Shown piece by piece: positions 1,646 to 31,480 of a stretch of DNA of 31,480 nt. Position 1 is the stretch's first letter. Each line of letters begins with the position of its first letter. The notes under the pieces are model-generated. The model worked only from the letters and a program-made list of their open reading frames with translations, made no database searches and was not told the DNA's origin. The DNA is taken from positions 1 to 31,480 of the IMG/VR virus record IMGVR_UViG_3300009124_000060, one strand, 5' to 3'. The stretch is from a virus. The position numbers were made by a program, and so were the translations under genes.

Positions 1646-1697
1646 GGAGGCCTTCGGGGCCTCCCCTTAGATGTACTTCCCTAAGTTACCCTATTGG
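1646..1697 (-). promoter_or_regulatory. Motif A, copy S1: CCAATAGGGTAACTTAGGGAAG (1697->1676), a 15-nt spacer, then the 7-bp hairpin GGAGGCC/GGCCTCC (1664->1646).
   Basis: The 18-nt core is identical to the cores at 10866-10883 and 24917-24934. It starts 1 nt after the stop codon of the upstream gene and ends 20 nt before the amidase ATG. Confidence 0.6.
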
Positions 1698-2567: not shown

Positions 2568-2858
2568 TTAAGTTTCTTTCTTGCCACCTGGATTGGTGGT
2601 CTTCTTGTTTCTAGGCCAAAGATCTTTGCAAGCCCAATATGAGGCTGACATCTTATCCTTAGCTCTGTCACACTTATGTCTGGCTCTAAAGGACTTCTTA
2701 GCAGAATCAGAATAGTTATGCTTGTAGCCCTTAGCTCCGTAATGAACTAATTTTTCTTTTCCATCCTCACAAGCCTTAACCATCTTCTTCTTACCTGGTC
2801 TGGTAGAACGTCTAGGTTTGTTGCAAGGCATATCATCTTTATTTACTTTTCTTGGCAT
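2568..2858 (-). CDS. Small, very basic Lys/Arg-rich protein of unknown function.
   Basis: 96 aa with an ATG start and many K/R residues. Conserved-looking Cys/His residues (RARHKCD...YWACKDLW). Confidence 0.5.
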   Translation of the reverse strand: MPRKVNKDDMPCNKPRRSTRPGKKKMVKACEDGKEKLVHYGAKGYKHNYSDSAKKSFRARHKCDRAKDKMSASYWACKDLWPRNKKTTNPGGKKET

Positions 2859-3756: not shown

Positions 3757-4299
3757 TTAGTGTTTTATTGAATCATCATATACTTTGTCTAAAGTTCCAT
3801 CGACTGCATCTTTTGCAGACCAAGTTTCCATAACAGCGTCTTCCTTGCTAACACCAGAATCAACAAGTGATTGGTATTTGTTCTCAAGATTACTTTGCTG
3901 TTGTATTTTTGTTTTTCTTTCATTAGTCGCATCCTCGAACCACTTATCTCCACCTAGATCCGAAAGAGGAACGAAGCCTGACTTGTCCATTATTTTTCTT
4001 TCTTCCATTCTAGACTTCACATACTTACCTAAAGAAGCAGAGAAGTAACCTCTAGCATCACAGCCAGAGCCTGTAGATTCTCCTTGTATACCAAATGATC
4101 TAGGCAGTTGTCTGTGGATATTCTCGGAACCACAGCCTACAATTTGCTCACCTGATTCAAAGTCACACCACAGTTCTTCTTGACCGCAGTACTTGGCACT
4201 ATCCATATAAGTTTCTTTTGTTTCTGGATTGTACTTGGTTCTCTCAAACGCTTCACCTTCTGAACCGCAGTCCCCACATTTATATTTAAAAAATGGCAT
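3757..4299 (-). CDS. Protein with an N-terminal zinc-ribbon (FmdB-like CxxC) motif.
   Basis: MPFFKYKCGDCGSEGEAFE resembles the start of an FmdB-type zinc ribbon, and further Cys residues follow (WCDF...VGCGS). Its start overlaps the portal stop (TAATG). Confidence 0.4.
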   Translation of the reverse strand: MPFFKYKCGDCGSEGEAFERTKYNPETKETYMDSAKYCGQEELWCDFESGEQIVGCGSENIHRQLPRSFGIQGESTGSGCDARGYFSASLGKYVKSRMEERKIMDKSGFVPLSDLGGDKWFEDATNERKTKIQQQSNLENKYQSLVDSGVSKEDAVMETWSAKDAVDGTLDKVYDDSIKH

Positions 4300-5948
4300 T
4301 ATGCTCTCCCACCCCTTTGCATTAACATCTGACTTAACTGCTCAGCAGGTAGCTCTCCTGCAGGGCCTATATCGCCTTCTGGAGGCAGTTCTCCTGCAGC
4401 TCCTTGTGGTAACCCTCCTGCGGCTTGAGGAGCCGCTTCAGGTGTATCCATGAAGCTCTTAGGCAGGTCATACAGTCTGATGATTTCTTCTTTTATTTTC
4501 TCTGCTGGTACACCCAACTGCATAAGCTGAGGTGCCAACATAATTAAGTTATTCTTCTTGATAGAATCTGATAACGGTGTAGAGGATTGGTCCAGTGCTA
4601 CAATTTTAAACTTTGCATCTAGATCTTCTACGGTGATAATCTTCGGCATATCATCTATCTCAATAGTAGCTGTCTCACCTTCTTCGCAAAGCAAAGATAC
4701 AGTTCTTAGATAAGCTCTGGCTAGAAGTTCAATAGAATTATCTTTTTCTCTTGCTAACTTTCCAATCTCTGACGCACTGTATTGAGCTAAAGCAGTAATC
4801 TCTGTAGCGGTAGCTTTAGTAGCTTCACCTCTAGAGAATGGAGCAAGGATAGATCCTCTGTTTATATCTGCTTCAATCTGTCCTAAGTACCTGTCAAAAT
4901 TTGTAGAAATAGATTCTACACCAATAGGCTGGATAATACCAGCAAGTGATTGTTCATCTACAGGTATCATAGCTCCATCAATACCAGCAGTAATAGCTGC
5001 TAAGGCTTCAGGATCTAAAGTTCCTTCTTTGTACAAGTATTGTCTGGAATCCCTACGTATAGAATTAGCCCAGTAAGTCCTAAGAATATTCTTTTCAAAA
5101 AACTGGTCATATACCCTTGCCACAGCTGAGAGACCACACATAGGTCTCTCTGGTTTTCTAGCAAAATAAATAGGGCAAAGAGGAGATAGTGGTTTGTCAT
5201 CATAGGTTCTCAAAGGTATTTCAGATTTTTCTAGTAGCTTGTCGCCATCAGAATAGTTAGGGGACCAGATGTACAGATGATCATAGGAGAAGTCATACAG
5301 TTCAACCACTTGGATGTACAGGTATTCTTCAGGTAAATTATTTATCTTTCCATTGTATGCAGCGTTGTTGTCTGTGTCGAAGTAATCTACTTTAGGAATA
5401 GCCGAGAACTTTTTGTTCCCAAACTTCTGCTTAGCTTCTGCAACTGTAAGGTAGTATACGTGGCCACAGAAACGCTGTGAATCCCAAGAAGAAGCGTCCA
5501 TATCTGTTATCACTTCCCAAGGTGGTAAAGCCTTTATAGCTACCTTCTCAAGCATATCCTCTGACTTAGCATCGGATAATTTTAAAAAAGAATTAGGGTA
5601 GATTAGTGCAAGCCTTGATGCAATTTCAATCTGTTCTCTTTTCTCGAATAGAAATCTGTTGACTACTTCCTGTGCCATTGAAGCATTACCAGAAGTCATA
5701 CTTGGATCTTTGCCTACAGCTACTGCAGGAGATCTAGAAAATAAACTTGCGATGAATCCTTCGATGTAAGAAAAGCAATCTGCAGTTTCTACACGGATCA
5801 TACTGTCGTCTACTTGTTGTCCTTCCCAGAACTTATTCTCATAAGAATTTTTAAATCTCTTTAGCTGTGGCCTAAGATGATCAAAGTATTCTTCGTGTTC
5901 TGTAAGGATGGTTCTGATTAGCTGTACAGCCTGTTCTATAGTTCTCAT
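4299..5948 (-). CDS. Portal protein.
   Basis: 549 aa, directly downstream of the large terminase. Size and position are canonical. The tail is acidic with a Pro/Gly-rich repeat. Confidence 0.7.
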   Translation of the reverse strand: MRTIEQAVQLIRTILTEHEEYFDHLRPQLKRFKNSYENKFWEGQQVDDSMIRVETADCFSYIEGFIASLFSRSPAVAVGKDPSMTSGNASMAQEVVNRFLFEKREQIEIASRLALIYPNSFLKLSDAKSEDMLEKVAIKALPPWEVITDMDASSWDSQRFCGHVYYLTVAEAKQKFGNKKFSAIPKVDYFDTDNNAAYNGKINNLPEEYLYIQVVELYDFSYDHLYIWSPNYSDGDKLLEKSEIPLRTYDDKPLSPLCPIYFARKPERPMCGLSAVARVYDQFFEKNILRTYWANSIRRDSRQYLYKEGTLDPEALAAITAGIDGAMIPVDEQSLAGIIQPIGVESISTNFDRYLGQIEADINRGSILAPFSRGEATKATATEITALAQYSASEIGKLAREKDNSIELLARAYLRTVSLLCEEGETATIEIDDMPKIITVEDLDAKFKIVALDQSSTPLSDSIKKNNLIMLAPQLMQLGVPAEKIKEEIIRLYDLPKSFMDTPEAAPQAAGGLPQGAAGELPPEGDIGPAGELPAEQLSQMLMQRGGRA

Positions 5949-5983: not shown

Positions 5984-7492
5984 TTAGTATCTACGGTGTG
6001 CCTTTGTGCCTGCACCAGCTAATTCTTTAATTCTTTGTGCTTTTCTCTGTAGTATCCAATCTGGTAAATAAGCAGAATCCTTTAGCCTTACTGCATCTAA
6101 ACACCAACAAGCAAGAGCCAGTGCCATAGCCGAATCACTGTGACCTTCTTTAGAAGAATCTAAGAATTTAATTCTTCCTCTGTCATCTGTCTGTATCGTT
6201 CTCAGTTCAGCTGCAGTAGTGCTATCTAGTAAAGAGATCTTACCAGTTTGTATTTCTTTTTTTAATTTCTCGAACAGTAAGGGCTTGGACTTTGCAGTGG
6301 TAAGAAAGTCTTTTCCATCTTCTTTCCATATACGGCTACATCCTTGGTGGCCCAGTTCATTGATTGTTGCCAGTCCATAGTTGTTTGCTTCCACAAGTAC
6401 TAGGGCGGAATTATACTGTTCAGATATTTCAAAAATATATTCTGCTAACTGTATGGGTGTTACCTGATTAGATCTCCACATACACACTGGTACATTCATA
6501 CGCTTAGACATCACTGTAATTACGCTGTAGTCCCTTCCTACACCTCCACCTACGTCTACCCCTATGGCATACGCATCAGATTGGTCAGGCTCAGCTATGG
6601 TCAGCCATTCCTCTCCATCGTGTGTAATGATCTCACAGTCTTGGAAATCTTTAAAAGAAAAGTATGTATTCCCTACTATCCTGTATGCTTCTTCTAATGT
6701 AGTAGGATATTCTCTTGTAAATTTCTCTATCCCTAACTTACCTACTTTACGCCTACGCCAAGTAATCTGTTCTGGCGTTACACCACTTTTTACTAAAGAG
6801 GATTCATAGTCAGTTAGATCTTTGGCTGGTACCTCCGAAGTGTATTCCTCGTGTTCATACCAAGGAAAAAATAAATAATTCCATTGTGCTTGCTTTAGCT
6901 CGTAGGTCTTAATCTCTTTGTGCAGGCAGTCGTTGTAGTAGTTGGCTGTAGATTCTATTATAATTTGTCCATCATTTACTGCGGCTAATGCTGTAGCCTT
7001 TAGTTCTTCTGGGTCATCAGCGAACGCATATTCCGATATATGGATCTTTGTAGCTGTGAAGGAGCGTAACCCTCCCTGCTGTGTTGCAGCGGCTGCTATG
7101 ATGCGTCCTCCGCCTTCAAATGCAAGCTGTGTAGTATTGTCCACCTCAAGTGGACGCTGTAGTGCAGTGGGTAAAGAATAATAAAAGTTCTTGTGCATCT
7201 TCAGGATCTGCTTAGAGGATTCCAATTTATAACTTAAGATAGCATAAGTCACTGGTTCATCAGAGCGATAAGCTAAGGCAAACAGATAAGCTGACCAGAA
7301 GGTAGTGCTACCCATCTGTCTAGCTTTTAAAATTAAAATATCCTCACCAGTCTCTGCAGCTTCCAGCATACGTTTCTGTTCAGCATTGAGCTGAAACTGT
7401 TGTTGCTTTCCGTGCTTATTGATGATGGTAAGTTTCTCTATAAATTCTTCTAGCGGCATCTGCTGAATAATTTCTAAAAGTTCTTTGTCCAT
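5984..7492 (-). CDS. terL: Terminase large subunit.
   Basis: A Walker-A-like KARQMGSTTF lies near the N-terminus. Nuclease-domain signatures are present (GVDVGGGVGRDYSVITV ... HSDSAMALALA). Length is 502 aa. Confidence 0.88.
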   Translation of the reverse strand: MDKELLEIIQQMPLEEFIEKLTIINKHGKQQQFQLNAEQKRMLEAAETGEDILILKARQMGSTTFWSAYLFALAYRSDEPVTYAILSYKLESSKQILKMHKNFYYSLPTALQRPLEVDNTTQLAFEGGGRIIAAAATQQGGLRSFTATKIHISEYAFADDPEELKATALAAVNDGQIIIESTANYYNDCLHKEIKTYELKQAQWNYLFFPWYEHEEYTSEVPAKDLTDYESSLVKSGVTPEQITWRRRKVGKLGIEKFTREYPTTLEEAYRIVGNTYFSFKDFQDCEIITHDGEEWLTIAEPDQSDAYAIGVDVGGGVGRDYSVITVMSKRMNVPVCMWRSNQVTPIQLAEYIFEISEQYNSALVLVEANNYGLATINELGHQGCSRIWKEDGKDFLTTAKSKPLLFEKLKKEIQTGKISLLDSTTAAELRTIQTDDRGRIKFLDSSKEGHSDSAMALALACWCLDAVRLKDSAYLPDWILQRKAQRIKELAGAGTKAHRRY

Positions 7493-7849: not shown

Positions 7850-7881
7850 AAAGAGGCTGATAGCTCTTAACTACCAACCTC
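7846..7881 (-). terminator. Rho-independent terminator after the sigma-r4-like gene.
   Basis: An 11-bp stem (7853-7863 with 7871-7881). It is fully paired only in the minus-strand RNA, where two plus-strand mismatches become G-U pairs. A run of U7 follows (A7 at 7846-7852 on the plus strand). Confidence 0.75.
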
Positions 7882-7920
7882 TGAAAAAACCCATATGACG
7901 ATAGGATTTGTTTCTTCTCC

Positions 7921-8313
7921 TTATGTCCAGCTCTCCTTTAATTTCTTTATTATTCTTTCGTAATGATACTTGATGTTCTGTCTTGTGCAACCTAAGTCTC
8001 TTGCAATTGCTGCGTATGATCTTCCGTGTTCTAAATGCTGTCTTACTATGTACTGATCTTTTTGTTTTAATGATGCGATCATCTCTTCACCTAGCTTGAT
8101 GTTTGCTTCATAATCTACAGTATCGATTTCTTCTTCTACACCATCAAGTCTTCTTTCTATTTCATCTTCAAAATCTACAGTATCGTTTTGTGCATAGTCG
8201 AATAACCATTCTCTATCGCCGACATAAACATTTCTAAAAGTATTTGTTTTGATCTCTGGATGCTCTTTGTCTAGTTCATCCATTATCTTTTGCCATTTGC
8301 TATCAAGTTTCAT
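7921..8313 (-). CDS. Sigma-70 region-4-like HTH protein, a candidate phage transcription factor.
   Basis: The C-terminus LKQKDQYIVRQHLEHGRSYAAIARDLGCTRQNIKYHYERIIKKLK fits the sigma region 4/LuxR-type HTH pattern. No sigma region 2 is visible. Confidence 0.55.
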   Translation of the reverse strand: MKLDSKWQKIMDELDKEHPEIKTNTFRNVYVGDREWLFDYAQNDTVDFEDEIERRLDGVEEEIDTVDYEANIKLGEEMIASLKQKDQYIVRQHLEHGRSYAAIARDLGCTRQNIKYHYERIIKKLKESWT

Positions 8314-8409: not shown

Positions 8410-8482
8410 TGGAAGGGCAGGTGGGATTCGAACCCACGGCTCTCTGGTTCGCGGCCCAAGAGATGATCCATCCAGCTGCCCC
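8410..8482 (-). tRNA. Atypical tRNA gene with an encoded CCA. The anticodon is probably GCG (Arg), but the isotype is uncertain.
   Basis: The minus strand reads GGGGCAG CT GGAT GGATC ATCT C TTGGG CCGCGAA CCAGA GAGCC GTGGG TTCGAAT CCCAC CTGCCCT T CCA. The acceptor stem has 7 bp and the T arm is canonical (GTGGG-TTCGAAT-CCCAC). The D loop has only 5 nt, the anticodon stem has one mismatch, and position 33 is C rather than U. Confidence 0.6.
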
Positions 8483-8485
8483 AGA

Positions 8486-8737
8486 TCAGATTCGTAGAAA
8501 GAATTTATGATCTGGTGTGACAGGTATCTCTGATTGAAAGTCTGTCTCGTAGTAATAGATTAAGTTTCCGTTTGGTTGCGGATGAGCTTGTATAGCAGAT
8601 ACAGGAAGTAGTCTTAGTCTCTCTCCACAGATATCCTCTACATAGATTTCCATATTAGCCATAAGCATTTTGGCGGCGGCCAAAAAAGAAACTTCTTGTA
8701 GTTGTACAGTTTCTATCTTGAAATCATTCCCTTCCAT
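8486..8737 (-). CDS. Hypothetical protein.
   Basis: 83 aa with an ATG start. It is translationally coupled to the upstream small ORF. No motif was recognised. Confidence 0.5.
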   Translation of the reverse strand: MEGNDFKIETVQLQEVSFLAAAKMLMANMEIYVEDICGERLRLLPVSAIQAHPQPNGNLIYYYETDFQSEIPVTPDHKFFLRI

Positions 8738-8895: not shown

Positions 8896-10167
8896 TTACC
8901 ACTGTGCCTTGATGACCAGTGGTGAATTCCAATTCTTTCTTCTAAATTCGTTAGATATAAGTCTCAACCTTGCAGGTGAGATCTTCTTGTTGATAATCAA
9001 ACCATCAAACTGGTATGACATTACTTCGTATCCTGCGTCAGCAAGTAGTTCTGCATACTTAGAAATTTTATAAGTTTCCATTCTGCAAAGCATTCTTGAC
9101 AACACCTTGTTCAGTTCTTTGTCTGTCAGTGATCCTGCAGTTCTTTCTTCATAGCCACAAAGGTTCTTGAATGAATCCAAGTTGTACATATACTTGGTCA
9201 ACTTAGCCTTTGCTCCTCTGTATTCTTTCATAGTCTCTTCGCCATATACAAAGTCAGCGTTCTTGTTCCCGAACAAGATCGCAAGATGCAACAGCTTTTT
9301 ACTAGAGAACTGTTCGTATCCTTTCTTAGCTCTGTAAGCATTGATCTTCTCTAAGTCTTTATCGGATACCCAAGACAAGATAGCATCTCTAGAATCTTTT
9401 CCTGAAAAAGTAAGCAGCAATTCTTTCTGTTCTTTAGTCAAGCCAGCCTTGAACCAGTGCGACTTAACCAAGTATTCGAAGTCACAGTTGTAAGAAGCCT
9501 TGGCATCGATGTCTACATAGCCAGTGTTCTTTAGTAAAAAGTCTCTAAGTCTAGAAGAAGCACCTTGTAGAGAAGCATCCATAGCGAATGCTCTTTCACC
9601 TTGCTTTCTGTATTCTGTCCACAGACAAGCATCATCGGGAGAGATGTTCAACTTCATAGCTTTTAAATATTCTTTATCGTGATCATTCAAACCGAGAGCT
9701 TCAATTTGTACTGCATCAGTGAATAGATCTTGTCTAAGTGGGCAAGCAGTAGAAGCTATACCAGTCTTAGCATTCAGTCTTTCAACAGCTACCTTCTTAT
9801 CTACAAAGAAACCAACAGGCAATTTGCACAGCTCATTGAATACTGTATTGATTGCGGCAAGATTTCTTTTGAAAGTTTTGCAGTAAGCACCTTGGCTATA
9901 GCTGTCACTAACGATCTCACCGAATGGACCGTAGTCTCTGTCGAAGTTCTTCTTGTAGTTTCTATCAAGAGAGATAGCAAACTGAGAAGAGAAGTAGGTG
10001 TATTCCCAAACCTGAAGTGTTCTGTGTTGTTGCTGGAACTTTAGTCTGGTTACAATTCTTTTTAATTTCTTAAGCCACTGGATTTCTCTAGTGCTGTAGT
10101 CTTCTTTCTTAAGAGAAGGATCAATGGTTAGATCGGTTGGATTGTCTTTGTATTGTAGTATCGTCAT
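8896..10167 (-). CDS. Divergent protein resembling a family A (Pol I/T7-like) polymerase domain, with no exonuclease domain.
   Basis: The motifs appear in canonical order. ERAFAMDASLQGAS (aa ~191-204) compares with GRLSSTDPNLQNIP. YVDIDAKASY (aa ~217-226) is motif-A-like. KKLLHLAILFGNKNADFVYG (aa ~290-309) compares with motif B K...NFG..YG. SYQFDGLII (aa ~384-392) compares with motif C QVHDE. Spacing is close to that of the Klenow polymerase domain. At 423 aa there is room for thumb, palm and fingers only. Confidence 0.45.
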   Translation of the reverse strand: MTILQYKDNPTDLTIDPSLKKEDYSTREIQWLKKLKRIVTRLKFQQQHRTLQVWEYTYFSSQFAISLDRNYKKNFDRDYGPFGEIVSDSYSQGAYCKTFKRNLAAINTVFNELCKLPVGFFVDKKVAVERLNAKTGIASTACPLRQDLFTDAVQIEALGLNDHDKEYLKAMKLNISPDDACLWTEYRKQGERAFAMDASLQGASSRLRDFLLKNTGYVDIDAKASYNCDFEYLVKSHWFKAGLTKEQKELLLTFSGKDSRDAILSWVSDKDLEKINAYRAKKGYEQFSSKKLLHLAILFGNKNADFVYGEETMKEYRGAKAKLTKYMYNLDSFKNLCGYEERTAGSLTDKELNKVLSRMLCRMETYKISKYAELLADAGYEVMSYQFDGLIINKKISPARLRLISNEFRRKNWNSPLVIKAQW

Positions 10168-10277: not shown

Positions 10278-10730
10278 TTAGCAGAAAGCCTTTAATTTCT
10301 TAAGTTTTTTTTCTGCATCGGACAATTTTTCGTAGTGTCCGTGGTAAGTTCTCTTACCCAAATGTCTCTCAGTAATTCTATATCTAGCATAGCCATTGTT
10401 ATTTACTAAAGAGATCTTGTACCTTGGGCTGCCATTGTTAAGAAGGTTTTCGCTTCTGGTTACAATTCTAAGATTAGAAACATTATTGTTTGTTCTGTCT
10501 CTGTCTATGTGATCTACGTGCAAGCCATCGTGTTCCCCAAAGTAAGCTAAAGCAACAAGCTTGTGTACGTGCCTAGTATATGCTTTGTTGTCTTTCATAA
10601 CCTGAACATACAGGTAGTTAGTCTTCTTGTTAACAGATTGCTTTAGTTCTCTCTGCTTGCTTCTTTTGTTAGAAATTATTCTTCCATCGTCTGTTGCGTA
10701 GTATCCAGGGAATCCTGCTATCTCTTTCAT
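10278..10730 (-). CDS. HNH homing endonuclease (NUMOD4 plus HNH_3 type).
   Basis: The N-terminus IAGFPGYYATDDGRIISN is NUMOD4-like, and HVDHIDRDRTNNNVSNLRIVTRSEN is an HNH motif. Confidence 0.88.
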   Translation of the reverse strand: MKEIAGFPGYYATDDGRIISNKRSKQRELKQSVNKKTNYLYVQVMKDNKAYTRHVHKLVALAYFGEHDGLHVDHIDRDRTNNNVSNLRIVTRSENLLNNGSPRYKISLVNNNGYARYRITERHLGKRTYHGHYEKLSDAEKKLKKLKAFC

Positions 10731-10754: not shown

Positions 10755-10783
10755 ATTATACCCACATTACTAGAAAAAGTAAA
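10755..10783 (-). promoter_or_regulatory. Sigma70-type promoter TTTACT-17-TATAAT upstream of the HNH gene.
   Basis: On the minus strand, TTTACT lies at 10783-10778 and a perfect TATAAT at 10760-10755, with a 17-nt spacer. Confidence 0.5.
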
Positions 10784-10831: not shown

Positions 10832-10883
10832 GACCGCCTTCGGGGCGGTCCTTGGTGGTGTCTCTCCTAAGTTACCCTATTGG
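10832..10883 (-). promoter_or_regulatory. Motif A, copy S2: CCAATAGGGTAACTTAGGAGAG (10883->10862), a 15-nt spacer, then the hairpin GACCGCC/GGCGGTC (10850->10832).
   Basis: The 18-nt core matches S1 and S3 exactly. The hairpin stem sequence differs from both but still pairs. It lies in the divergent intergenic region between the HNH gene (-) and the acidic-protein gene (+). Confidence 0.6.
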
Positions 10884-11687: not shown

Positions 11688-11783
11688 ACGGAAGTTGTGA
11701 GCCGTGTTATTCTCCTAAGAGATTATTAAAGTTAAGATTGTCTAAGGCCACAGGGTGTTACCTCCCCTGTGGTCTTTTTCTTT
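11688..11783 (+). ncRNA. Candidate small non-coding RNA of about 90 nt, defined by a promoter-terminator pair.
   Basis: It lies between the TATAAT at 11676-11681 and the terminator hairpin with its T-run at 11746-11783. The longest frame is about 10 codons. It contains CUCCUAAG, which is anti-SD-like. Confidence 0.35.
11746..11783 (+). terminator. Rho-independent terminator.
   Basis: A perfect 8-bp stem, CCACAGGG (11748-11755) with CCCTGTGG (11765-11772), and a 9-nt loop, followed by TCTTTTTCTTT. Confidence 0.7.
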
Positions 11784-12162
11784 ATATGACTTCTACGTCT
11801 ATCTTAAACTTCCACGTATCCTTCTCATATTCCTTCTTACCGTATATCTCTACGATCTGGCAGTCATCATCATAGACAATGCCTTCAAGGGCATCACAGA
11901 TACAGGAGAAGGTATTCTGTACATCTCTGCGAACCTTGTCTCCGAAGGTCACTGTAAGAATTAATCTGTATTTCTTGTCGGTAGGCCATATCACACAGGT
12001 AGCTGCTTCGTATTCCTGTCTAGCTTTGTCTGCTACTTCTTGTACGTAGGCTTCAAATTCCTTCACGTCTTTAGGTTTGTATGCCCTGCCGTGTCTTCTA
12101 GAGAATTTTAATTTGTTCTTTTTGCTCACTACCTTTCTGTAGCCTTCAATTTCTAGTTTCAT
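11782..12162 (-). CDS. rusA: RusA-like Holliday junction resolvase.
   Basis: RRDVQNTFSCICDALEGIVYDDDCQIVEI fits the RusA pattern (D..N..K...DAL.G....DD.QI). The track start at 12213 is a GTG. The ATG at 12162, preceded by GAGGA, is preferred (MKLEIEGY...). Confidence 0.6.
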   Translation of the reverse strand: MKLEIEGYRKVVSKKNKLKFSRRHGRAYKPKDVKEFEAYVQEVADKARQEYEAATCVIWPTDKKYRLILTVTFGDKVRRDVQNTFSCICDALEGIVYDDDCQIVEIYGKKEYEKDTWKFKIDVEVI

Positions 12163-12255
12163 CTTAGTGTCCTCACACATTACAGCAGATGTAAAGAACC
12201 ACTTAGTTGTCACTAAATGTAACTTTTATAAACTTTCTTTTACTTTCTTAGTCTT

Positions 12256-12914: not shown

Positions 12915-12947
12915 AAAGCCATCTCTTTCGGGATGGCTTTTTTGTTT
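12915..12947 (+). terminator. Rho-independent terminator in the convergent gap. It may work in both directions.
   Basis: The stem is AAAGCCATCTC/GGGATGGCTTT around a TTTC loop, followed by TTTTTGTTT. An A-rich tract upstream could serve the minus strand. Confidence 0.7.
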
Positions 12948-12964: not shown

Positions 12965-13123
12965 CTATTCTGGCTTTACATCAGATAGGATCATCATAGC
13001 AAGCTCTATAAGGTCTCTCACAAGCTCTTGTTTCTCTGCTGCGGTAAAACCATCTTTAGAATATTTGATGGCCTTGATGGCTACAGCAAGAGCCTTCTGT
13101 GCTGTTTTATCTACGTTTATCAT
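12965..13123 (-). CDS. Small hypothetical protein (52 aa), absent from the ORF track.
   Basis: Translated by hand: MINVDKTAQKALAVAIKAIKYSKDGFTAAEKQELVRDLIELAMMILSDVKPE. Its ATG overlaps the upstream stop (ATGA at 13120-13123). Confidence 0.4.
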   Translation of the reverse strand: MINVDKTAQKALAVAIKAIKYSKDGFTAAEKQELVRDLIELAMMILSDVKPE

Positions 13124-13377
13124 CTCTCTTTCTCCAGTACTTTCTCAATGTAGTGTAATCTAGCATCCAACTTTGTTACTGCTTCAGAGAATATTTTTCT
13201 ATCTTCTTTCATTTCGTGGATCAAGGCTTTGCGTTCTTCCTTGTTATCGTCAATGATCTTGTCGATAGATTCTCTCTGGAACTTTGTGAATACATAGATG
13301 AAGTAGACAGATAGAAGTGTTGCAGCCCCTGCAGATCCTAAACTTGTAATTACTTCTGGTGTGAACATTTCCAACAT
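13120..13377 (-). CDS. Single-pass membrane protein with a charged coiled-coil tail. Holin-like lysis candidate.
   Basis: An N-terminal hydrophobic segment (VITSLGSAGAATLLSVYFIYVF) is followed by a K/E-rich helix. SD GAGGAG. Confidence 0.4.
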   Translation of the reverse strand: MLEMFTPEVITSLGSAGAATLLSVYFIYVFTKFQRESIDKIIDDNKEERKALIHEMKEDRKIFSEAVTKLDARLHYIEKVLEKER

Positions 13378-13404: not shown

Positions 13405-13439
13405 AAAAAAAGGGACAGTAAGCCGAAACCTACTGCCCC
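13405..13439 (-). terminator. Rho-independent terminator after the fiber gene.
   Basis: The minus-strand stem is GGGGCAGTAGG / CTTACTGTCCC, about 11 bp with two G-U pairs, followed by U7 (A7 at 13405-13411 on the plus strand). Confidence 0.75.
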
Positions 13440-14645: not shown

Positions 14646-15034
14646 TATCTGTCCATCCTATAAGAAAGAATAACTTCATCTAACGTGGCTTCTGCTATAC
14701 CTGTTTTGACAAATAGATTTAGAGGATATTCGTCAGAGAACTGTGCCTCAAATTTAAAAACTGAAGTAGTTTTATCTGTACTGGTTAAACCTCTGGATAA
14801 ACCGCAGGAAGTATCAGGCATAGTACACAGATCACCATCGCTGTCTTCGGTAAGTCTTGCTGTTATAGCGATTTCTTCTGAATCCATTCCTGACATCCTT
14901 AATGTTACTGTTGATAAAATTCCTGTAAACTGTCTATCCCCAGGCGATAAGTTGTTAGGTTGTAGCTGGATTGCTGTACCGTATGCTGTACTTACCGTTT
15001 CGTTAGGAGACAAACGCAAATTATAAAATCTCAT
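14645..15034 (-). CDS. Hypothetical virion-module protein.
   Basis: 129 aa with an ATG start. Its stop overlaps the next gene's start. No motif was recognised. Confidence 0.45.
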   Translation of the reverse strand: MRFYNLRLSPNETVSTAYGTAIQLQPNNLSPGDRQFTGILSTVTLRMSGMDSEEIAITARLTEDSDGDLCTMPDTSCGLSRGLTSTDKTTSVFKFEAQFSDEYPLNLFVKTGIAEATLDEVILSYRMDR

Positions 15035-15057
15035 AGCGTTTCCTCAATTCAAATGTA

Positions 15058-15085
15058 GTTCTCTACTGTATACAATTTGTAAAAT
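15058..15085 (-). promoter_or_regulatory. Motif C, copy 3: ATTTTACAAATTGTATACAGTAGAGAAC.
   Basis: Located in the 57-bp gap between the giant gene and the 129-aa gene. It aligns with 1168-1194 and 7823-7849. Confidence 0.45.
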
Positions 15086-15091
15086 CCTACC

Positions 15092-18000
15092 TTATTGATC
15101 TCCTTTCTCAGCATCTTCTCTAGCCTTTTCTTCGATGGCTGCATCTCTTGTTCTTTCCAAAGACTTTAATCTTCTGATTTCTGCTTGTATAGCTTGGCGT
15201 CTAGAATACAAATTAAAGAGATCTTGCTTAGCTGCAGGTGTTACCCCTACAGGCTTCCCTACTACCCTCTCAGCTATGTTAAACGGTTCATAGGCACCAG
15301 TACCTGCCATAATCCTTGTAAGCTCTACAGGGACCCTTGACAGCCCTACAAAGTTAACAGCACCCATAAAGCCATTGAAGTTCTCAGCTTGCTTAGCATC
15401 CATAGGAAAAATATAATTCTTTCCGTTTATCTCAATACCTTTATCAGATGTAGTGATTGTAGGTGTTATTGTACCACCAGTAATAACTTGTATTGTCTGA
15501 GCGATATCGAATGGGTCTTGTGTGCCGTAGTAAGTCTGCACTAACTTAGTCCATTCTACAGGAACTTTATTGCTAGCTTTAAAATCTGATTCTAAATCTA
15601 AACCACCACGAACTACAGGAGATACCATTCTTCTTAGTGTCTCTTGTGTTTCATCAACAGGAGAAGCTATTAGCCCAGCTACCGACATCATCGCATCTAG
15701 CGTAGGTATAGCAGGTGTAGTCATATAGAAGTTTCTATCTTGTCCGTTGTGTACTGACAAGATGGTTCTGTTTAGTGTATAGTCTGGCATATAAACTTTC
15801 GGATCGAACTGCTTGTCATCGTTCATTGTGGTCATAAACCTTTCAACACCATTGTCCATCTTCAAGATGTTTGCAATTCTTTTTGCTTTTGCAGGCTCGC
15901 TTAAGTTCTTCACAAACGTAGTCATATTCTGTCTGTAGAAAGAATAAAAAACAAATGCTGTAGCAGCAAAGGCTTTCTCTGTTGGGTTCATATTGTTGTA
16001 GTCAAACATAGACTTTCTAGCCAACACAGTTGCTTCTTCTATGGATGCACCGTTCTTTAGGGCATCTTGCATTACCGCAGCCCTGAACACCATATCTTCA
16101 GCAATCATCAGTTCACCACCAACATCACCAATTCTAGCAAGAGGTCTTTGTACAAGTGCACCAGCCACTGCACCTTTTGGTCCAGCTACAGCTCCTCCGA
16201 CAGCAGCGGCGGTAGTGTTTCTAGACCAGTCTGTCATCCAGTTCATAGCTTCTTTGGACAGCCCTGTTCTTCTAGTATTGTTGTCTTCGATATATTTTAT
16301 TAAAGATCCGTCATTGATTGTACTAGTAATCATAGAGAATTCAGATCTAGCACCACCAGCATACACTGCTTTGTTCAGATCTCCGTAGGTATAGAGCCTA
16401 CCATCTGGTGTTTCTACTGCAATCTCATAGTATCTAGGAGCTGTTGGACTGTAAGCCTGCAGAGCCTTAACACCGTGCTTTACACCATTGGGACCTACAA
16501 TCTTACCTGTGGTCATATAAGTGATTGTAGAGGCTGTAGTAATGTTGTTCATATGGAACTGAGGGGCGTATGTAAGAACGCCCTTGTAGAAGATAGACAT
16601 TACCCCGTTCATAAAGTTAGATAAGCCTTTTAAAGTTTTATCTTTTAGGGACAAATCCTTTAGTAACTGGTCAAGCTGTCTAGATATCGGAGCAATTCTA
16701 CCTGATGCTAGTGCTTTGTTAAGTTCGTTGTATACAGTTTCACCCATATACAGTTTACCCATACGCTCATCTTTGAACAGTTGGTTAATGAAATCTGCAG
16801 CCTTGTCTGCGTCTGTATCAAATTTAGCCCACAAGTTATTATTTCTAATGATTTGATCACCTGCATCTGCTACGTATCTTTGGTATCTAGCAGCAAATGA
16901 CAGCTCTCTTTCTACGTATCCATACAGACCTTGGTTAGCTTGTTGCTGTTTAAGTTGCTCTACAGCTTGTTCAAATTCATCCCAGTTCTTAGCGTTAACC
17001 AAAGCAGCATTGTAGTTCTGTACACCGCCAGGTCCCATATTACCCAGTGTTCTTTGGATAGCACCGAGGTCTGCTCTTTCTGGTCTGTTGAAAGAATCTA
17101 AGATATAAGATTTTAAATCTGCTTCTAAGTAAGTCGATGGATCCATATTGGCGTTCTCTGCCATCTCTTCAAGCATAAACTGAGAAGCCATATCGCTTCT
17201 CATAGTGTCAATGAGATCATCAGTACCTGCTATAATTACATCTTCGTTTACAGCTCTTACAAGATGCTTGCTTACAATTCTATCACCCTCTGCCCAGTAG
17301 TACATACCCAGACTAACTTCATTCTGCATTGTATCTTTTAAAGAAGCAAACTTCTTTTCTATCATTCTATCTGTTACACCAGGTGCAAGTGACTTCTCAT
17401 CACCAAGAATCTTCACGTATTCTGTTATAAGTTCACTGAAGTTATCCCAGTATTTAGCTGGGTTCTCGTAAGTCTTAGCTACAAAAATCTCTACTACATC
17501 ATCCAACTGCTCTTTACCGAACTTAGATAAAAAAGTATTTCTTTGTGCTAGCTGGTTTAAGCCTACTACCCTGTCAGTTACAGATGTAGATTCCTTAACG
17601 TGATAGAACAATCTACCTAATGCCCAGTCTGCAGTGTCGTACAATCTGTTTAGTTGTATTGATGTCTGTACATCATCAGCTCTAATCTTATAAGCATCAG
17701 AAAGATTAGGAGATTCTATCACCCCAGTAGCGGCTTCTTCCGCTTCAGCAATTTTTCTTTTTGTTTGCTGTCTGAACAAATCAGATTCTTCTTTGTACTG
17801 AGCAGCCTTCTCTTCTCTGCTAGCTGTCTTCTCTGCTCTCAAGTCTTGTACAGCTTCATCGTAAGACTTTCTTACTTCACCTTTGTTGAAGTCTCTGATT
17901 GTAACCAGTTCTTTCTTTTCTACTTCAAGTGCATCTGCAAGTTCTGACTTTTTAGTAGAGAGAACTTCATCTGCTTGTTCTCTGGCTATCCTTATATTTT

Positions 18001-21000
18001 CTTTTCCACGAAGTTTTACTTGTTTTAAATCTGCTTTAGTGGCTTTTTTAAAATTAGATAATTCTTCTCTGGCATCACGCACTATATTACTAAAGCGATT
18101 GTTAACTTCGTTTAGGGCAACAGTTCTCTTTTGCTTAATGCTTCCTTTATACTTCTGCATTTCAGTTTTAAGTGCTGCAGCATCATCTGCAAAGTCTGCT
18201 CTGATCTGTGCAGTTTGTGCTTTGTAGCCCTCTCTAACGCTCGCTGCAGCGTCTTTCTTGGCTTGCCTTACTGCTTGCCTTACTGTGTCGAAAGAATCCC
18301 CTAGAGCTTGTCTGAAGGCTGCTTTCTGGTTTCTATTAGACCAGCCTAGTTGTGCACGAAAAGACCTAACATCAAAGTCTGCTTGACTAAGACCAGCTCT
18401 TCTTGCCATCTCTGTATCAAGCATATCATCAATTAAAGTTTGTAATTCTTCTCTACGTCCAGCATCATCAAGCCCATCCATTCTGGCAACCATATTGTCT
18501 AAGGCTTCTTCTCTAATCAAACCTATGGTTTCTTCGTATTCAGTTTCTACTTGTCTAACTGTATCATCAAACATCTCTGCAGCATCTTTCTGAGCTTGTC
18601 TGTATGAGCGTCTGTAGGCTTTCATAGCCTCAGACATATCATCAGCCTCGTCAAGGAATTCAATGTCGTCAGCATTCCTTATGCGGGCAAGTTCGTCAGT
18701 AACATCTATTTGAGCTTCTTCAAGTTCTAATTTCTTATTAGCCTTAAGTTCTTTATCTCTGGCTACGTAGGTAGCTTTGGTTTCATCATATGCTTGCTTA
18801 GCTTCTGCTTCAATCTTTTCTACTTTTGTTTTTCTAACTTCTTCTGCTTCAGCAATAGCTAACTTGTTGTTGTTCTCTAAGTCTTTCAGATCTTTTTCAG
18901 ATTGCTTTTGAACCTTCTCTATCTCTGCATCTCTAGTTTTCTTTGCATTATCTACAGCCTTTGCTCTTTCGGCTTCCAGTTTCCTAAGTGCAGCATTGTA
19001 ATCTGCTTGTGCTGCAGCCTTAGCTTCCGCTGTAGTAGCACTAAGAAGTTTTAATTTTTCATCTCTAACTTCTTGCTGTGCTGCTCTTGCTGACTTGAAT
19101 TCATCTTCAAGTGCTTTCTTAGATTCAGAGAACTGTTTTTGTGCATCAGCTCTAAGAGACCTTTCTTCTGCTCTAATGGCTTCCTTAGTCTCAGGAAGTT
19201 TTCTTTCCAATTCAACTTGCTCAAGTCTTCTTTGTCTAACTTCAGCTCTTTTAGATTCAGCCCAGTTTTGGTATTCAGTTGCGGATACTTGCTTAGTTCC
19301 TCCCTGTCCATCGGGTATGTGGAGCTGTGCAATCTCTGGTGATCTAGGCCCAACAATAGCAGCACCAAGGGCTTCTTCTGACGTAGGAATAACTTTAGGA
19401 TCTAAGCCATACAGCTCTCTTAATTCTTCTGCTTGTTTGCCTTTGCTTCTCAATCCGTCTATGGTATTTCTAAGCTGGATATCCATAGCTGAGGCTTCTT
19501 GTTTTACTTCCTCGAATAATCTACGCTGCTCAAAGGTAGCAGCGTCTGGTGTAGCTGTTTCAGGTACACTATTCTTTCTAGCTCTCTCTGCCATTTTTGC
19601 TATGTAATCTTTTCCTGATCCAAAGAATTCTACAAAGAAACCATCATCCCTTACACCTGGAGCATCAAGAAACTTTCTTTGCATCTTTGGTGGTAACTTA
19701 GAGATATCTGCTGTGGTGTATACCCCTCTTTGCAGATTCATAGCTGCATCGTCTATGGTCATACCCTTTAGTCTATTGAAATCTTCGAAGTACAACTTGC
19801 CATCTTTCAAGTTATCAAGAATGTTTCTGAATTCAATGTTACCCAATTTGTTCTGTGCTTTGGCATCAAAGAGCAGCATATTCAAAGCATCGGTATCTTC
19901 AGGTTCTAAATAGAAAAACTTTTGCGGCTTTGGTGCTTCAGCATACCCACCCAGTTCTGCCATCTGTGACTTTGATGCTGATATTCTCTCGGCATCAATA
20001 CCGATCTTTCTTGCAGGTACTACATCGCCTGCAAACACCCTACGTATGGGAGCTGTCCACTTACCAAAAACACCTTGTGTATCTATGGTTTGCTTTCTTC
20101 CGTGATAAATTTGAGAAAGATATTGTGATAGTGGAGATTTGTTTGCTTCTGCGTAAAGCTCAGCTTCTCTTGCTGGATGGGTAAAGGTCTTTCTGGTTAC
20201 TGCTTTTACACCATCTAAACCTCTTAGGCCAGGTGCTGCTTCAAAAACCGAAGACCTTGCGTAGTGATAGTCTACAAGTTTTTGTACATCTGCTAGTTCA
20301 TCACCACCCATTCTAGCAATTCTTGTTCCTCTGGATGTGGCAATCCTATCAAGCAATTCTTTATTTACCCTAGGGTTGTCTAGTAATGCTTGCTCAGCAA
20401 AGTCAAAGCCTTCGTCCGCTACTTCGTCAAGGTATCTTTGGGTAGCATCGTGTTCTAATTTGGATTGCTTTGCATTTCCAAACATTTTTTCGTCAACTGC
20501 TTTAGATGCTTCAGTTACGTCATCACCAGTTCTAGCAATGTGTTCATCTAGTAACTTAGCGTACTTAGTATCAGGGTTAGGAATCTGACCTTTAGCCGCA
20601 GTTCTAGAAGCCTCTAGTTCTCTGGCAGTCTTAGCACCTACAAGAGATCTGATATCTCCGTAATCATCAGTAGCTTTAATTACTTTCTTTGCTAGTGGCT
20701 TACCTACAATTGGCATATGTGTAATAAAGTTTACATCTTTTGCAAAAGCATTTAGTCCAGCACCACCTGCTGCTTTTAAAACTTCACCTACAGCCTTTGC
20801 GTCTGTAGAAGTATTTAGAACTTTTTGTGCTTTGTACATTTGACTACCGCCCTTGAGGGCTTTTGATCCAGCAATCAAAACACCAAAGTCTGGTGACAGA
20901 ATATCTCCAGCTAAACCACCACCAACAACTACAGCGGCTTGCCAACCTTCTAATCCAAGAGCGTTAGATACGTCTTGGAATTCACCTGTAAGCCCTTTGT

Positions 21001-24916: not shown

Positions 24917-24970
24917 CCAATAGGGTAACTTAGGGAAGAGCTACTAGAGAGGGACCTCCCCAAGAGGTCC
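24917..24970 (+). promoter_or_regulatory. Motif A, copy S3, inverted relative to S1 and S2: CCAATAGGGTAACTTAGGGAAG (24917-24938), a 17-nt spacer from the 18-nt core, then the hairpin GGACCTC/GAGGTCC (24952-24970).
   Basis: The exact 18-nt core reads on the plus strand here. Both flanking genes are on the minus strand, and no plus-strand ORF lies downstream. Confidence 0.6.
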
Positions 24971-29326: not shown

Positions 29327-30820
29327 TTACCCTCTATAGTGTAGATTCGAAATATCAAAGCGAGCAGAGCGTTGTCCCATAGAAAACTGTCCTCTCTGTA
29401 CTTGGAAGTCAATCTTATCTACATATCTTTTCTCTAAACCTTTCACTTCGGTTTCGTATTTCTTTTCATAAATCCTAGCCATATCAATCTGACCTAGCTT
29501 TAGATAGATATCTTCTAGAGCCTTGTAGACAATAAGCTGATGGAATTCAACAGGCATATCAGGTACATCTGTTCCTAGAAGAAGATCTTGTGGTTTCTTC
29601 ATATAACGCATAATGCCCTGTCTTACGTAGTTGTGGAACTGTGTAATAATAGCAAAGTCTGTTTTCCTAGGTAGCTCAATGTCATATCCATTTACACGAG
29701 GATAAAAACGAATTTGTTGGTGCAACCCATCTCTTTCAATATATCTTTCATTTCCAGAATCCAACTGGGTTATGTCATCGATTGTAACCTCAAAGTCTTC
29801 ATCAGATACAAGCAAAGGCTCTAAGTAAGTGTTTGTACCCCTAGAACCACCTTTCGTTACTTGCACCCAACAGTGTAGACCTTTGTGTTCTCCAGTCTTT
29901 CTGTCTAGATTTTTATTAAAGAATATAACCTTACGATAACCTTCCCACTGTGTAGGTGTCTTGTCGTTTGCATAGAAACCGTCAGAGAATATCTCTTCAT
30001 CATTCCAAGACATAAATTTTAAAATTACAGATCCGTTGTTACCGTGTGTGTGTACCTGTGAAGGTTCTGATAAAGGCCCAATCTTACCGTCCTTAACAAA
30101 CGCATAACAGAATTCCCAGTAGGTATTGTTTGGTAGCGTACCAGTCTCACCGTCTCTAATCTCTAATCTTTCTGCAGGTTTAATCTGTACCGTAGGACTG
30201 TTGATGTAAGCCTCTGCGTAAGGCTGATCGTAGTCTACACGCATATTAAGGCGTTCTTCCATTGAAGGAAGAATAGCCGAAGATTTACCGTATGGATTAG
30301 ACATACCAGATACTGTTGTGTATGGGTAATCTCTGTGTCCTACATAAAGCAATTCAGAGCAGTCTTGTGGTAAGTCATAGTATCTTTTTTTAATTTTCCA
30401 AGCAGTAGAATCTGTGAGGTCTTCGCCTCTGTATTCTTCTGTTAGCTGTATGTTTCCGCTGACATCGATATAGTTGATGATGTATTCTTGGTTGTTCAGC
30501 TCAATTATAGCTCCTTCCCATACATCTCTTTGAGAGACAAGGCGGTCTACAAAAGTAAAGAATACAACTTTTCTTGATCCAGATGCGATGGTGATGGTTT
30601 TCTCTGCACCAAGGGGCATACCTTCGTTATCTCTTGCAGGTGTAATATCTGGATAAAAATCAAAGATAGCTAGCTTTGTTGTGAAGTTCCAACGCTTTTT
30701 AGTATAGATAGAATAGTAAGCGTCGTTGATAAGATCATCTAGCTGTTCATTGTACTGTTGCAGCTCTGGGCTGTAGTCAGTAATGTTTTTAATTTTCTGG
30801 CGTAATGCAGTTAGGTTCAT
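29327..30820 (-). CDS. Candidate head-tail adaptor / tail tubular protein A analogue.
   Basis: 497 aa. It is the first gene after the capsid/decoration terminator. The call rests on position only. Confidence 0.3.
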   Translation of the reverse strand: MNLTALRQKIKNITDYSPELQQYNEQLDDLINDAYYSIYTKKRWNFTTKLAIFDFYPDITPARDNEGMPLGAEKTITIASGSRKVVFFTFVDRLVSQRDVWEGAIIELNNQEYIINYIDVSGNIQLTEEYRGEDLTDSTAWKIKKRYYDLPQDCSELLYVGHRDYPYTTVSGMSNPYGKSSAILPSMEERLNMRVDYDQPYAEAYINSPTVQIKPAERLEIRDGETGTLPNNTYWEFCYAFVKDGKIGPLSEPSQVHTHGNNGSVILKFMSWNDEEIFSDGFYANDKTPTQWEGYRKVIFFNKNLDRKTGEHKGLHCWVQVTKGGSRGTNTYLEPLLVSDEDFEVTIDDITQLDSGNERYIERDGLHQQIRFYPRVNGYDIELPRKTDFAIITQFHNYVRQGIMRYMKKPQDLLLGTDVPDMPVEFHQLIVYKALEDIYLKLGQIDMARIYEKKYETEVKGLEKRYVDKIDFQVQRGQFSMGQRSARFDISNLHYRG

Positions 30821-30913: not shown

Positions 30914-31363
30914 TTAGAAGTTCTTACAAACGTAAACTGAAATGCTCTCAGCAGTAGTCGAAGCAGCCAAAGCAACAGCAGCGTAAGGCGTAATGTTAGC
31001 ACCTGTAGCATCTGTTTTAGCAGCACCTACACCAGCAGCAGCAGAAGGAAACAGAGCGTCTCCTACAGCGATGTTTACCGAAGTACCATCTACTTTCATA
31101 TCTACTACACCTTTGATGCAAACACGAACCTTTCCGCCTTCATCAGCAGCAGCCAAAGCTACACCGATAGGGCAAGCATCAGTAGCATCACATTCTTTTA
31201 CGAAAAGCATTTGATCAGCAGCATCAGTTTGGCTCAAGTCCAAAGCAACCAACGCACCTTCAGCAATAGCTTCACCAGCCAAGAATGATTCAGTTTGATT
31301 TCTGTTAGAGGTATCAACCCCAGAACCAGATTCTAAATAATTAATTAATGTATTTGTTGACAT
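30914..31363 (-). CDS. Head decoration / cement-like protein (DUF2190-like pattern).
   Basis: 149 aa, Ala/Gly/Val-rich, with GEAIAEGALVAL...PIGVALAAADEGGKVRVCIKGVV...IAVGDALFPS. It starts 12 nt after the capsid stop. Confidence 0.5.
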   Translation of the reverse strand: MSTNTLINYLESGSGVDTSNRNQTESFLAGEAIAEGALVALDLSQTDAADQMLFVKECDATDACPIGVALAAADEGGKVRVCIKGVVDMKVDGTSVNIAVGDALFPSAAAGVGAAKTDATGANITPYAAVALAASTTAESISVYVCKNF

Positions 31364-31375
31364 AATAACCCCCTA

Positions 31376-31480
31376 TTAGTAAGTGTCTGCATTGAATAGA
31401 ACGCCACAAGAACCCAAGTGGTCAGCAATCAACTGCATCTTAACGTACAACTGAGCAGCTCTAGCAGTAGAACCAGATAC
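31376..31480 (-). CDS. 3' end of the major capsid gene. 31404-31480 duplicates 1-77. The unique tail at 31376-31403 encodes ...GVLFNADTY followed by a stop.
   Basis: The frame carries over from position 1: ...TCT TGT GG|C GTT CTA TTC AAT GCA GAC ACT TAC TAA, with the TAA at 31376-31378. Confidence 0.75.
   Translation of the reverse strand, partial: VSGSTARAAQLYVKMQLIADHLGSCGVLFNADTY
31404..31480. repeat. Terminal direct repeat, copy 2, identical to 1-77.
   Basis: Exact 77-nt identity with the window start. Confidence 0.95.

Follow-up and report, generated by a model that had tools for sequence, protein, structure and literature searches.

What reads, and for what purpose, an exactly repeated 18-nucleotide (nt) motif that looks like a T7-group promoter and is followed each time by a hairpin? 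The question is raised by an uncultured phage genome, IMG/VR virus record IMGVR_UViG_3300009124_000060, of which positions 1 to 31,480 (31,480 nt; hereafter the window, i.e., the whole stretch of DNA that was analysed) carry three such elements, including the one at 10,832 to 10,883 that is our main subject. The answer that we tentatively put first, based on sequence comparison, a structure model and analogy to characterised systems, is that the elements may be cis-acting replication priming or origin sites, placed on both strands, of the phage's own 423-amino acid (aa) polymerase (hereafter pol423); true transcription promoters come second in our ranking. The three elements are:

1646..1697, minus strand: element copy 1, with the 18-mer at 1697->1680 and the hairpin GGAGGCC-CCGAA-GGCCTCC at 1664->1646.
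10832..10883, minus strand: element copy 2 (the reported one), with the 18-mer at 10883->10866 and the hairpin GACCGCC-CCGAA-GGCGGTC at 10850->10832.
24917..24970, plus strand: element copy 3, with the 18-mer at 24917-24934 and the hairpin GGACCTC-CCCAA-GAGGTCC at 24952-24970.

The original prediction had described three exact copies of the 18-mer, CCAATAGGGTAACTTAGG, and the description holds: the window contains them with 0 mismatches where shuffled sequence gives 0.03 expected, none of 100 shuffles of the window reaches three copies, and a scan of the window allowing up to three mismatches finds neither a fourth site nor any degenerate extra copy. The bases right after the 18-mer (GAAG, AGAG and GAAG for copies 1, 2 and 3, respectively), the spacers of 15, 15 and 17 nt between 18-mer and hairpin (that of copy 1 being purine-rich/CAA), and the stem and loop sequences all read as originally described too. 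The hairpins have a 7-bp stem and a 5-nt loop and are, in a scan of the whole genome for hairpins, the sole 7-bp GC-rich stems with CC..A loops; copy 2 folds with a z-score of -3.7. An eighth pair extends every stem, being G.T in the window copies and G-C in those of the relatives; the closing C-G pair is conserved, as is the loop, CC(C)(C/G)(G/A)A. Two simple interpretations of the parts were tried and rejected, namely that the hairpins are intrinsic terminators (no T-run follows any stem) and that the 18-mer is a host sigma-70 promoter (its hexamer-like parts are merely 3 nt apart). The 18-mer is also not palindromic, unlike the site for a dimeric helix-turn-helix protein, and Rfam 15 returned no covariance-model match to the elements, its lone sub-threshold hit being unrelated and elsewhere in the window.

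Searching related contigs for the 18-mer, as had been proposed with the original prediction, yielded more copies in which the pairing is kept. Three further copies (L003, L075A and L075B), on two fragments of a diverged relative, bring the collection to six copies from two related genomes, with six distinct stems (GGGAGGCC, GGACCGCC, GGGACCTC, GACGGTCC, GGACAGGC and GACACCTC). Counted on a hand alignment of these six (MAFFT did not register the variable stems), all stem cells are paired (48/48), six of the eight stem positions carry two or three pair types, and full pairing is obtained from just one of the 720 permutations of the 3' arms, which is the true assignment. Window copy 1 and the L003 copy occupy orthologous junctions and have 4 of 8 stem bases in common; that is, half of the stem bases have changed at the same junction, which is direct evidence of compensatory change. 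The pairs are all Watson-Crick except for the outer G.T, which forms on the motif strand alone; since it becomes A.C on the opposite strand, it must be the motif strand, or a copy of it, that folds. Folding by a single strand of set polarity counts in favour of the priming reading. Stem identity between copies is 2-6 of 8, with stems and spacers diverged about as neutral sequence would be and the 18-mer invariant. This points to copies that are old and under strong selection rather than the product of recent duplication, in agreement with the earlier view that the stems covary and are not plain duplicates.

What, then, could recognize such an element? Several candidates are encoded close to copy 2, in an operon with the following features:

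10755..10783, minus strand: sigma-70-type promoter TTTACT-17-TGgTATAAT (extended -10), between copy 2 and the HNH start codon.
10278-10730, minus strand: HNH/NUMOD4 endonuclease gene, between the sigma-70 promoter and the pol423 gene.
8896..10167, minus strand: pol423 gene, encoding a 423-aa orphan modelled as a minimal family-A polymerase of TV-Pol-like type and proposed here to read the element.
8486..8737, minus strand: open reading frame (ORF) of 83 aa, directly downstream of the pol423 gene.
8410-8482, minus strand: tRNA-Arg (anticodon GCG), between the 83-aa ORF and the sigma-r4-like gene, within the polymerase operon.
7921-8313: gene for a sigma-70 region-4 (sigma-r4-like) protein.

The pol423 sequence has no match in Pfam, PHROG or PDB, and its relatives number only 14 among 1.8 billion representative proteins; none were found in IMG/VR and GTDB genomes, and a scan of JGI metagenomes provided four pol423-bearing loci. 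An AlphaFold (AF2) model based on a 13-sequence alignment reached a predicted local distance difference test score (pLDDT) of 86.9 and a predicted template-modelling score (pTM) of 0.86, and was used instead of a model from 3 sequences (pLDDT 50). It shows a minimal family-A fold (thumb, palm and fingers) without nuclease domains. The top Foldseek matches in PDB are family-A DNA polymerases only (Klentaq, Bst, apPol and M. smegmatis Pol1; E-value 1.6e-4 and weaker, probability 1.0), and the best in BFVD are virophage replication proteins of ~780 aa (the Zamilon "DNA replication protein", the Qinghai Lake virophage "helicase/primase/polymerase" and others; E-value 8.7e-9 to 1e-5, TM-score 0.43-0.48); neither database has a T7-like RNA polymerase among its top 50 matches. 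By length and annotation, the virophage proteins look like fusions of TV-Pol and D5 helicase of the Sputnik V13 type, the fusion described by Iyer, Abhiman and Aravind (PMC2579912). The motifs of the 13-sequence alignment agree with this placement: R192 (in a beta-hairpin, strands 181-195) and the catalytic aspartates of the palm, D221 and D388, are invariant, the arginine in the context GER...SLQG (cf. TGRLSS..PNLQN in Pol I), and motifs A, B and C read DxDA..S, K..LAxxFG and FDGLI, respectively. When the fingers were checked for RxxxK, K291 proved nearly invariant and followed by LAxxFG, and the residue at K-4 is basic in some members only. In two distant homologues (P0013 and P0014), the domain is N-terminal to a D5_N or DUF5906/VapE (SF3-helicase) module, a slot that is usually the position of the primase. 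Thus, the model and the motifs identify pol423 as a minimal family-A polymerase and make the original "family-A-like" assignment more specific, i.e., TV-Pol-like. An earlier idea of ours, that pol423 is an archaeo-eukaryotic primase (AEP) with DxD / H / D motifs, was dropped once Foldseek showed family A.

The proposal made for TV-Pols in 2008 was that they form the minimal core of the superfamily of Pol I and T7 RNA polymerase, with a predicted activity as primase-polymerases (PMC2579912). CcPol-MP, from SCCmec, is a demonstrated primase that uses and strongly prefers deoxynucleotides (dNTPs), and its favoured start site is at a putative origin with inverted repeats (PMC7581432; bioRxiv 10.1101/2022.12.02.518924). 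By analogy to its single-stranded DNA-binding protein (SSB)-like MP subunit, the product of the 83-aa ORF is a candidate small partner of pol423; the ORF has no family matches and is conserved next to the polymerase in the close clade only (L002 and L074).

A reason to connect pol423 to the element is their joint distribution. Exact-pattern scans of IMG/VR with 16-, 17- and 18-mers added only L001-L003 and L010; L001 and L002 are near-identical contigs bearing the motif, and L003 is a fragment of a diverged relative with the element at the copy-1 position. L081, L082 and L090-L155 were discarded as carriers, being chance matches with no hairpins. Each of the four lineages encoding a pol423 homologue has a related motif, in the form of GGGTAACTTAGG in the window and L075, TAGTAACTATGG in L070/L076 and TAGTAACTATAG in L077/L078. 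In L075 (polymerase identity 81%), two copies stand in tandem ahead of the polymerase gene, both in sense orientation. L070/L076 (34%) carry ATAGTTTAGTAACTATGGTA four times as two inverted pairs with arms ~200 bp apart; RusA and the polymerase gene's consensus sigma-70 promoter flank one pair, and the other is at the amidase/capsid junction, with one arm in frame within the amidase gene. L077/L078 (33%) carry AAAAGTAGTAACTATAG(G/A)AG ~440 nt upstream of the polymerase gene as well as two further copies within the giant gene, one sense and one antisense; taking L070 and L077 together, inverted pairs are 200-530 bp apart. All versions have in common the core GTAACT-(A)T(A)G-G, after which come a purine run and a short GC hairpin, and the window, L070, L075 and L077 each have a copy just upstream of the polymerase operon, beside its sigma-70 promoter. 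When six-frame translations of all 78 family loci were searched with a polymerase family profile, L070-L078 alone gave hits, and just one of 66 capsid relatives (L010) has the motif. Relatives with sigma-r4 or RusA homologues but without the polymerase are also without the motif. Therefore, the polymerase is the only gene found to track the motif across the four lineages. The motif also varies alongside the polymerase (33-81% identity) with core and purine run kept, as would be expected of a co-evolving protein-DNA pair.

These results bear on the readers that the original prediction had named. Its suggestion of pol423 is borne out to the extent that gene and motif co-occur, while the other two candidates found no support: the giant 2492-aa protein, considered for the part of virion RNA polymerase, matches nothing in Pfam, PHROG or PDB and, in sequence-level tests, shows neither the T/DxxGR...RxxxK..YG nor the DxDGD pattern, and the sigma-r4-like protein has homologues in L050-L052, where the motif is absent. 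The accompanying statement that no full-length single-subunit RNA polymerase is encoded was correct, in that Pfam and PHROGs searches of the complete window genome identified no RNA polymerase, including none of the full-length T7-like single-subunit type.

A few additional observations on the relatives are worth recording. L003 (IMG/VR 3300006802) and L075 (Ga0070749) both share ~80% protein identity with the window and may derive from the same metagenome and phage population, in which case that relative would have at least three copies. The 20-nt exact motif copy at 11312-11331 of L070, inside conserved amidase coding sequence, encodes DSLVTMV. The HNH gene is missing from its position in L075 (two small ORFs are found there) and in L070, and looks like a free-standing homing endonuclease insertion. 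Among the relatives without the polymerase, L066 has a leader, AACAACCAACCAAC(G/A)AGGACA, that recurs upstream of several start codons (~1959-2130 and 14900-15800), and iteron-like direct repeats occur in L006 (~17500-17600, minus strand; GGTTTGGCGAAACA) and L066 (CATGTGCAGCATCC). The presence of such other repeats, iteron-like ones included, in polymerase-less relatives suggests that replication modules have been swapped within this phage group. A distant clade (L156, 21% identity) was set aside, its contig being only 4.3 kb long.

The positions of the copies provide a further line of evidence. Copy 1 is located between the stop codon of a 287-aa gene and the ribosome-binding site (RBS) of the amidase gene, in the direction of the genes and in the order 18-mer, hairpin, RBS, ATG, ahead of the amidase and capsid genes; this junction spans only ~10 nt in about 40 relatives. 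Copy 3 is located between the genes of two structural proteins of 240 aa and 215 aa, both on the minus strand, and is antisense to them; in 24 relatives, 8-12 nt separate the stop codon of the 240-aa homologue from the ATG that follows. Since the corresponding junctions in relatives span only ~10 nt, copies 1 and 3 represent lineage-specific insertions of ~60-85 nt at tight junctions within a single long operon; neither target-site duplications nor terminal repeats are visible at them. The relatives' short junctions manage without the element and, therefore, no promoter is needed there. Copy 2 is in a divergent early intergenic region, with the sigma-70-type promoter listed above, that of the HNH-polymerase operon, ~50 nt downstream of it. 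Through that promoter, host RNA polymerase can express the polymerase operon; L070 has an equivalent consensus sigma-70 promoter before its polymerase gene, and in L075 sigma-70-like hexamers can be made out there by eye. With respect to strand, 8 copies are sense and 6 antisense among the 14 known across the family, i.e., without orientation bias in genomes that are essentially one-stranded, and three pairs of copies are convergent. The window has two copies on the minus and one on the plus strand, L070 two plus and two minus, and L077 two plus and one minus; all polymerase-bearing genomes sampled over at least 12 kb have copies on both strands.

How the elements might work can be outlined as follows. 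Under the reading that we favour, pol423 would be a site-specific primase-polymerase, possibly assisted by a small partner, that recognizes the conserved 18-mer and starts a purine-rich primer de novo at or near GG(G)AAG or, alternatively, on single-stranded template just 3' of the hairpin, as in single-strand initiation (ssi) signals. The hairpin, with its conserved C-rich loop and free stem sequence, would form in the displaced or nascent strand and stabilise the open complex or position the enzyme, and sites on both strands would allow leading-strand synthesis both ways round the circular genome. Two modes of initiation can be envisaged. In a duplex mode, like that of T7 RNA polymerase, the product would be of the same sense as the motif, and the T7-like core would favour this mode; in a single-strand mode, like that of the primase RepB', with the start 3' of the hairpin, the outward-firing inverted pairs would be accommodated better. 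We infer that pol423 binds the motif and primes de novo, and likewise infer its choice of nucleotides and any role of the hairpin and the 83-aa ORF. The occurrence of the sites on both strands, sometimes as inverted pairs with a hairpin, favours priming, as in RSF1010 ssiA/ssiB, and the fact that the nearest relatives of pol423 are DNA-synthesising primase-polymerases counts against a role in mRNA synthesis. It is important to note that several observations pull the other way. The association of motif and polymerase spans four lineages, most relatives having been sampled within 10 kb of the capsid gene, and L010 carries an antisense copy at each of two junctions (terminase/portal and 287-aa/capsid), on a 9.5-kb contig that is short of the replication region, such that the motif is present and the replication module is outside the sampled contig. 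Further, hhalign of pol423 against single sequences of T7 RNA polymerase, T7 DNA polymerase and N4 gp16 gave nothing, and the family assignment therefore rests on structure and motifs; no recognised helicase or SSB is found in the window genome, leaving the rest of the replication machinery unexplained; the hairpin loop is conserved within the window clade only; and the layout of copy 1 is that of a textbook T7 late-promoter cassette, i.e., promoter, 5' hairpin, Shine-Dalgarno sequence, ATG.

This last point leads to the explanation suggested by the original prediction, that the elements are true promoters for mRNA. In that case pol423 would be a miniature single-subunit RNA polymerase, the hairpin an mRNA 5' stem-loop with a stabilising role, and the antisense copies sources of regulatory RNAs. 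The likeness to T7-group promoters is certainly real: the core resembles both T7 and SP6 promoters, the L077 variant TAGTAACTATAGGAGAGG has 11 contiguous bases, ACTATAGGAGA, identical to T7 phi1.1B from -7 to +4, a purine run provides a purine-rich initial sequence after every copy, ~18 bp exactly conserved in few copies is typical of phage RNA polymerase promoters, and copy 1 is directly before the amidase and capsid genes in the right order. In T7 itself, phi1.1A and phi1.1B lie at, and prime, the primary replication origin, and the 11-nt identity thus also speaks for the priming reading. TV-Pols, in turn, are related to Pol I and T7-like RNA polymerases alike (PMC2579912). However, 6 of the 14 copies are antisense in nearly one-stranded genomes and three pairs converge, copy 3 was inserted antisense in the middle of a structural operon, the same junctions work in relatives without any promoter, and the genome already has sigma-70 promoters and intrinsic terminators. 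In addition, the structure of pol423 is nearest to TV-Pol/Pol I, with no T7-like RNA polymerase among the top 50 in PDB or BFVD, and its characterised relative CcPol-MP strongly prefers dNTPs (PMC7581432). The antisense copies, the insertion of copies 1 and 3 and the operon's own sigma-70 promoter make the mRNA promoter reading weak and, overall, we consider it unlikely. Under a related proposal, pol423 would be a miniature family-A enzyme, sequence-specific and promoter-dependent, that recognizes GTAACT-TATAG-GGA as a duplex promoter like that of T7 and initiates de novo there, be it to prime replication, to transcribe or to do both; we regard this as doubtful.

Alternatively, the reader might be a protein other than pol423, such as the sigma-r4-like protein, the 83-aa protein or a host factor, with the element serving as a regulatory site, a nicking site or a site of RNA stability or processing, and with the link to the polymerase reflecting shared ancestry of a module. 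The polymerase lineages are mutually related, so phylogenetic co-inheritance could mimic a functional association, and the hairpin would form in mRNA in either orientation. On the other hand, sigma-r4 and RusA homologues are present in motif-less relatives, the 83-aa protein is restricted to the close clade, L075 and L070 keep the elements though the HNH gene is absent, and the element matches nothing in Rfam, has no T-run after its stems and is built on a motif that is not palindromic; hence, we deem such a reader improbable. The least probable scenario, to which we give very little credence, is that the elements are selfish or mobile cassettes of intergenic junctions (miniature inverted-repeat transposable element, repetitive extragenic palindromic or PeSL type) of little use to the phage. 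It would account for the clean insertion of copies 1 and 3 into tight junctions in either orientation, for copy-bearing junctions that differ between lineages, and for the inverted pairs ~200 bp apart in L070, but stems and spacers are substitution-saturated while the 18-mer is 100% identical and the pairing perfect, which indicates long-term purifying selection; target-site duplications and terminal repeats were not seen, and one L070 arm is in frame in conserved amidase coding sequence, so that pair is not an insertion. Among all these explanations, replication priming by pol423 remains the one that we place first.

The genome in which these elements occur is complete. Bases 1-77 of the window equal bases 31404-31480, an exact terminal overlap of 77 nt, and the capsid gene spans the junction; therefore, the window represents a complete, circularly assembled phage genome of 31,403 bp. 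The minus strand holds almost all genes, and this one-strand bias dominates the GC-skew signal, for which reason GC skew was rejected as an indicator of the origin. Sigma-70-like promoters and strong intrinsic terminators occur in the genome, and three of the latter appear to delimit a late operon, the polymerase/sigma-like operon and a small divergent early region. There is no close cultured phage, the nearest by capsid being Mx8 at 26% identity. The remaining features are:

1201-1626: amidase gene.
2568-2858, minus strand: 96-aa ORF, matching PHROG 220, "minor head protein and DNA pilot" (E-value 4e-20).
4299-5948: SU10-type portal gene.
5984-7492: large terminase gene.
7852-7882, minus strand: strong intrinsic terminator.
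11782-12213: RusA gene.
12915-12940, both strands: strong intrinsic terminator.
13120-13377: gene for a holin-like protein.
13412-13439, minus strand: strong intrinsic terminator.
15092-22570, minus strand: 2492-aa ORF without detectable homology, 24% of the genome.
29327-30820: SU10-type adaptor gene.
30914-31363: cement protein gene.

The 2492-aa protein, whose center is rich in Ala, Glu and Lys, probably serves as an internal or ejection protein of the virion.

Each ingredient taken by itself (TV-Pols, PolA-type primases, ssi signals, T7 promoters) has been described before. Our literature search found no description of a TV-Pol-like polymerase with a long, T7-promoter-like motif and a covarying hairpin dispersed on both strands of a phage genome, and the combination of a TV-Pol-like gene with a co-occurring, co-varying motif and hairpin represents a concrete, testable enzyme-site pair. 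If our favoured reading is correct, it would reveal the way in which a family-A polymerase comes to initiate de novo at a specific site, would bear on the origin of T7-type promoters and RNA polymerases, and would explain the swapping of replication modules in abundant, uncultured aquatic podophages of 31-35 kb; a very small, programmable polymerase-promoter pair is a further possible outcome. Should pol423 instead be a promoter-dependent initiator, it would be a living link from Pol I-type DNA polymerases to T7-type RNA polymerases, one that already possesses the promoter grammar.

Finally, it is instructive to compare the elements with known systems. The N4 virion RNA polymerase system also combines three promoter-type sites, a giant virion protein and a DNA hairpin in the signal. 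However, the N4 hairpins have 3-nt loops, are upstream of +1 and have no long flanking motif, and the giant protein of the window phage is, at the sequence level, without polymerase motifs or homology. The resemblance to T7-group promoters is closer, and includes a conserved block of ~18-22 bp in few exact copies, a TATA-like melting block, a core of (C/A)ACT(A)TAG followed by a G start and purine run, a stem-loop shortly downstream, and a reading enzyme that is family-A-type, pol423 being the candidate here. The differences are that the window motif is 1-2 nt shorter from the GGG block to the start, that copies are found on both strands, some of them against the genes, and that the candidate enzyme, at 423 aa, is TV-Pol/Pol I-like, with no T7-like RNA polymerase encoded. 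The ssiA and ssiB signals of RSF1010, which are read by the primase RepB' (PMC8567376), share with our elements a specific sequence 5' of a hairpin (in form only, there being no sequence homology), a placement on complementary strands that gives starts both ways (as inverted repeats in L070), and a dedicated element-encoded primase, the candidate for which here is again pol423. In RSF1010, however, the primase RepB' is of AEP type and recognises a 5' sequence of 6 nt, and the sites are paired in one oriV; here, pol423 is family-A-like, the conserved sequence is 18 nt and the window sites are dispersed round the genome. With respect to the enzyme itself, TV-Pol and CcPol-MP (PolA-SSB) provide the best comparison: although a helicase is not linked in the window phage and the 83-aa product is a candidate for the SSB partner, they have in common with pol423 a minimal family-A core of 400-600 aa without proofreading, a conserved arginine in a beta-hairpin together with two catalytic aspartates, relatives fused to D5-like helicases, and a home in phages or mobile elements.

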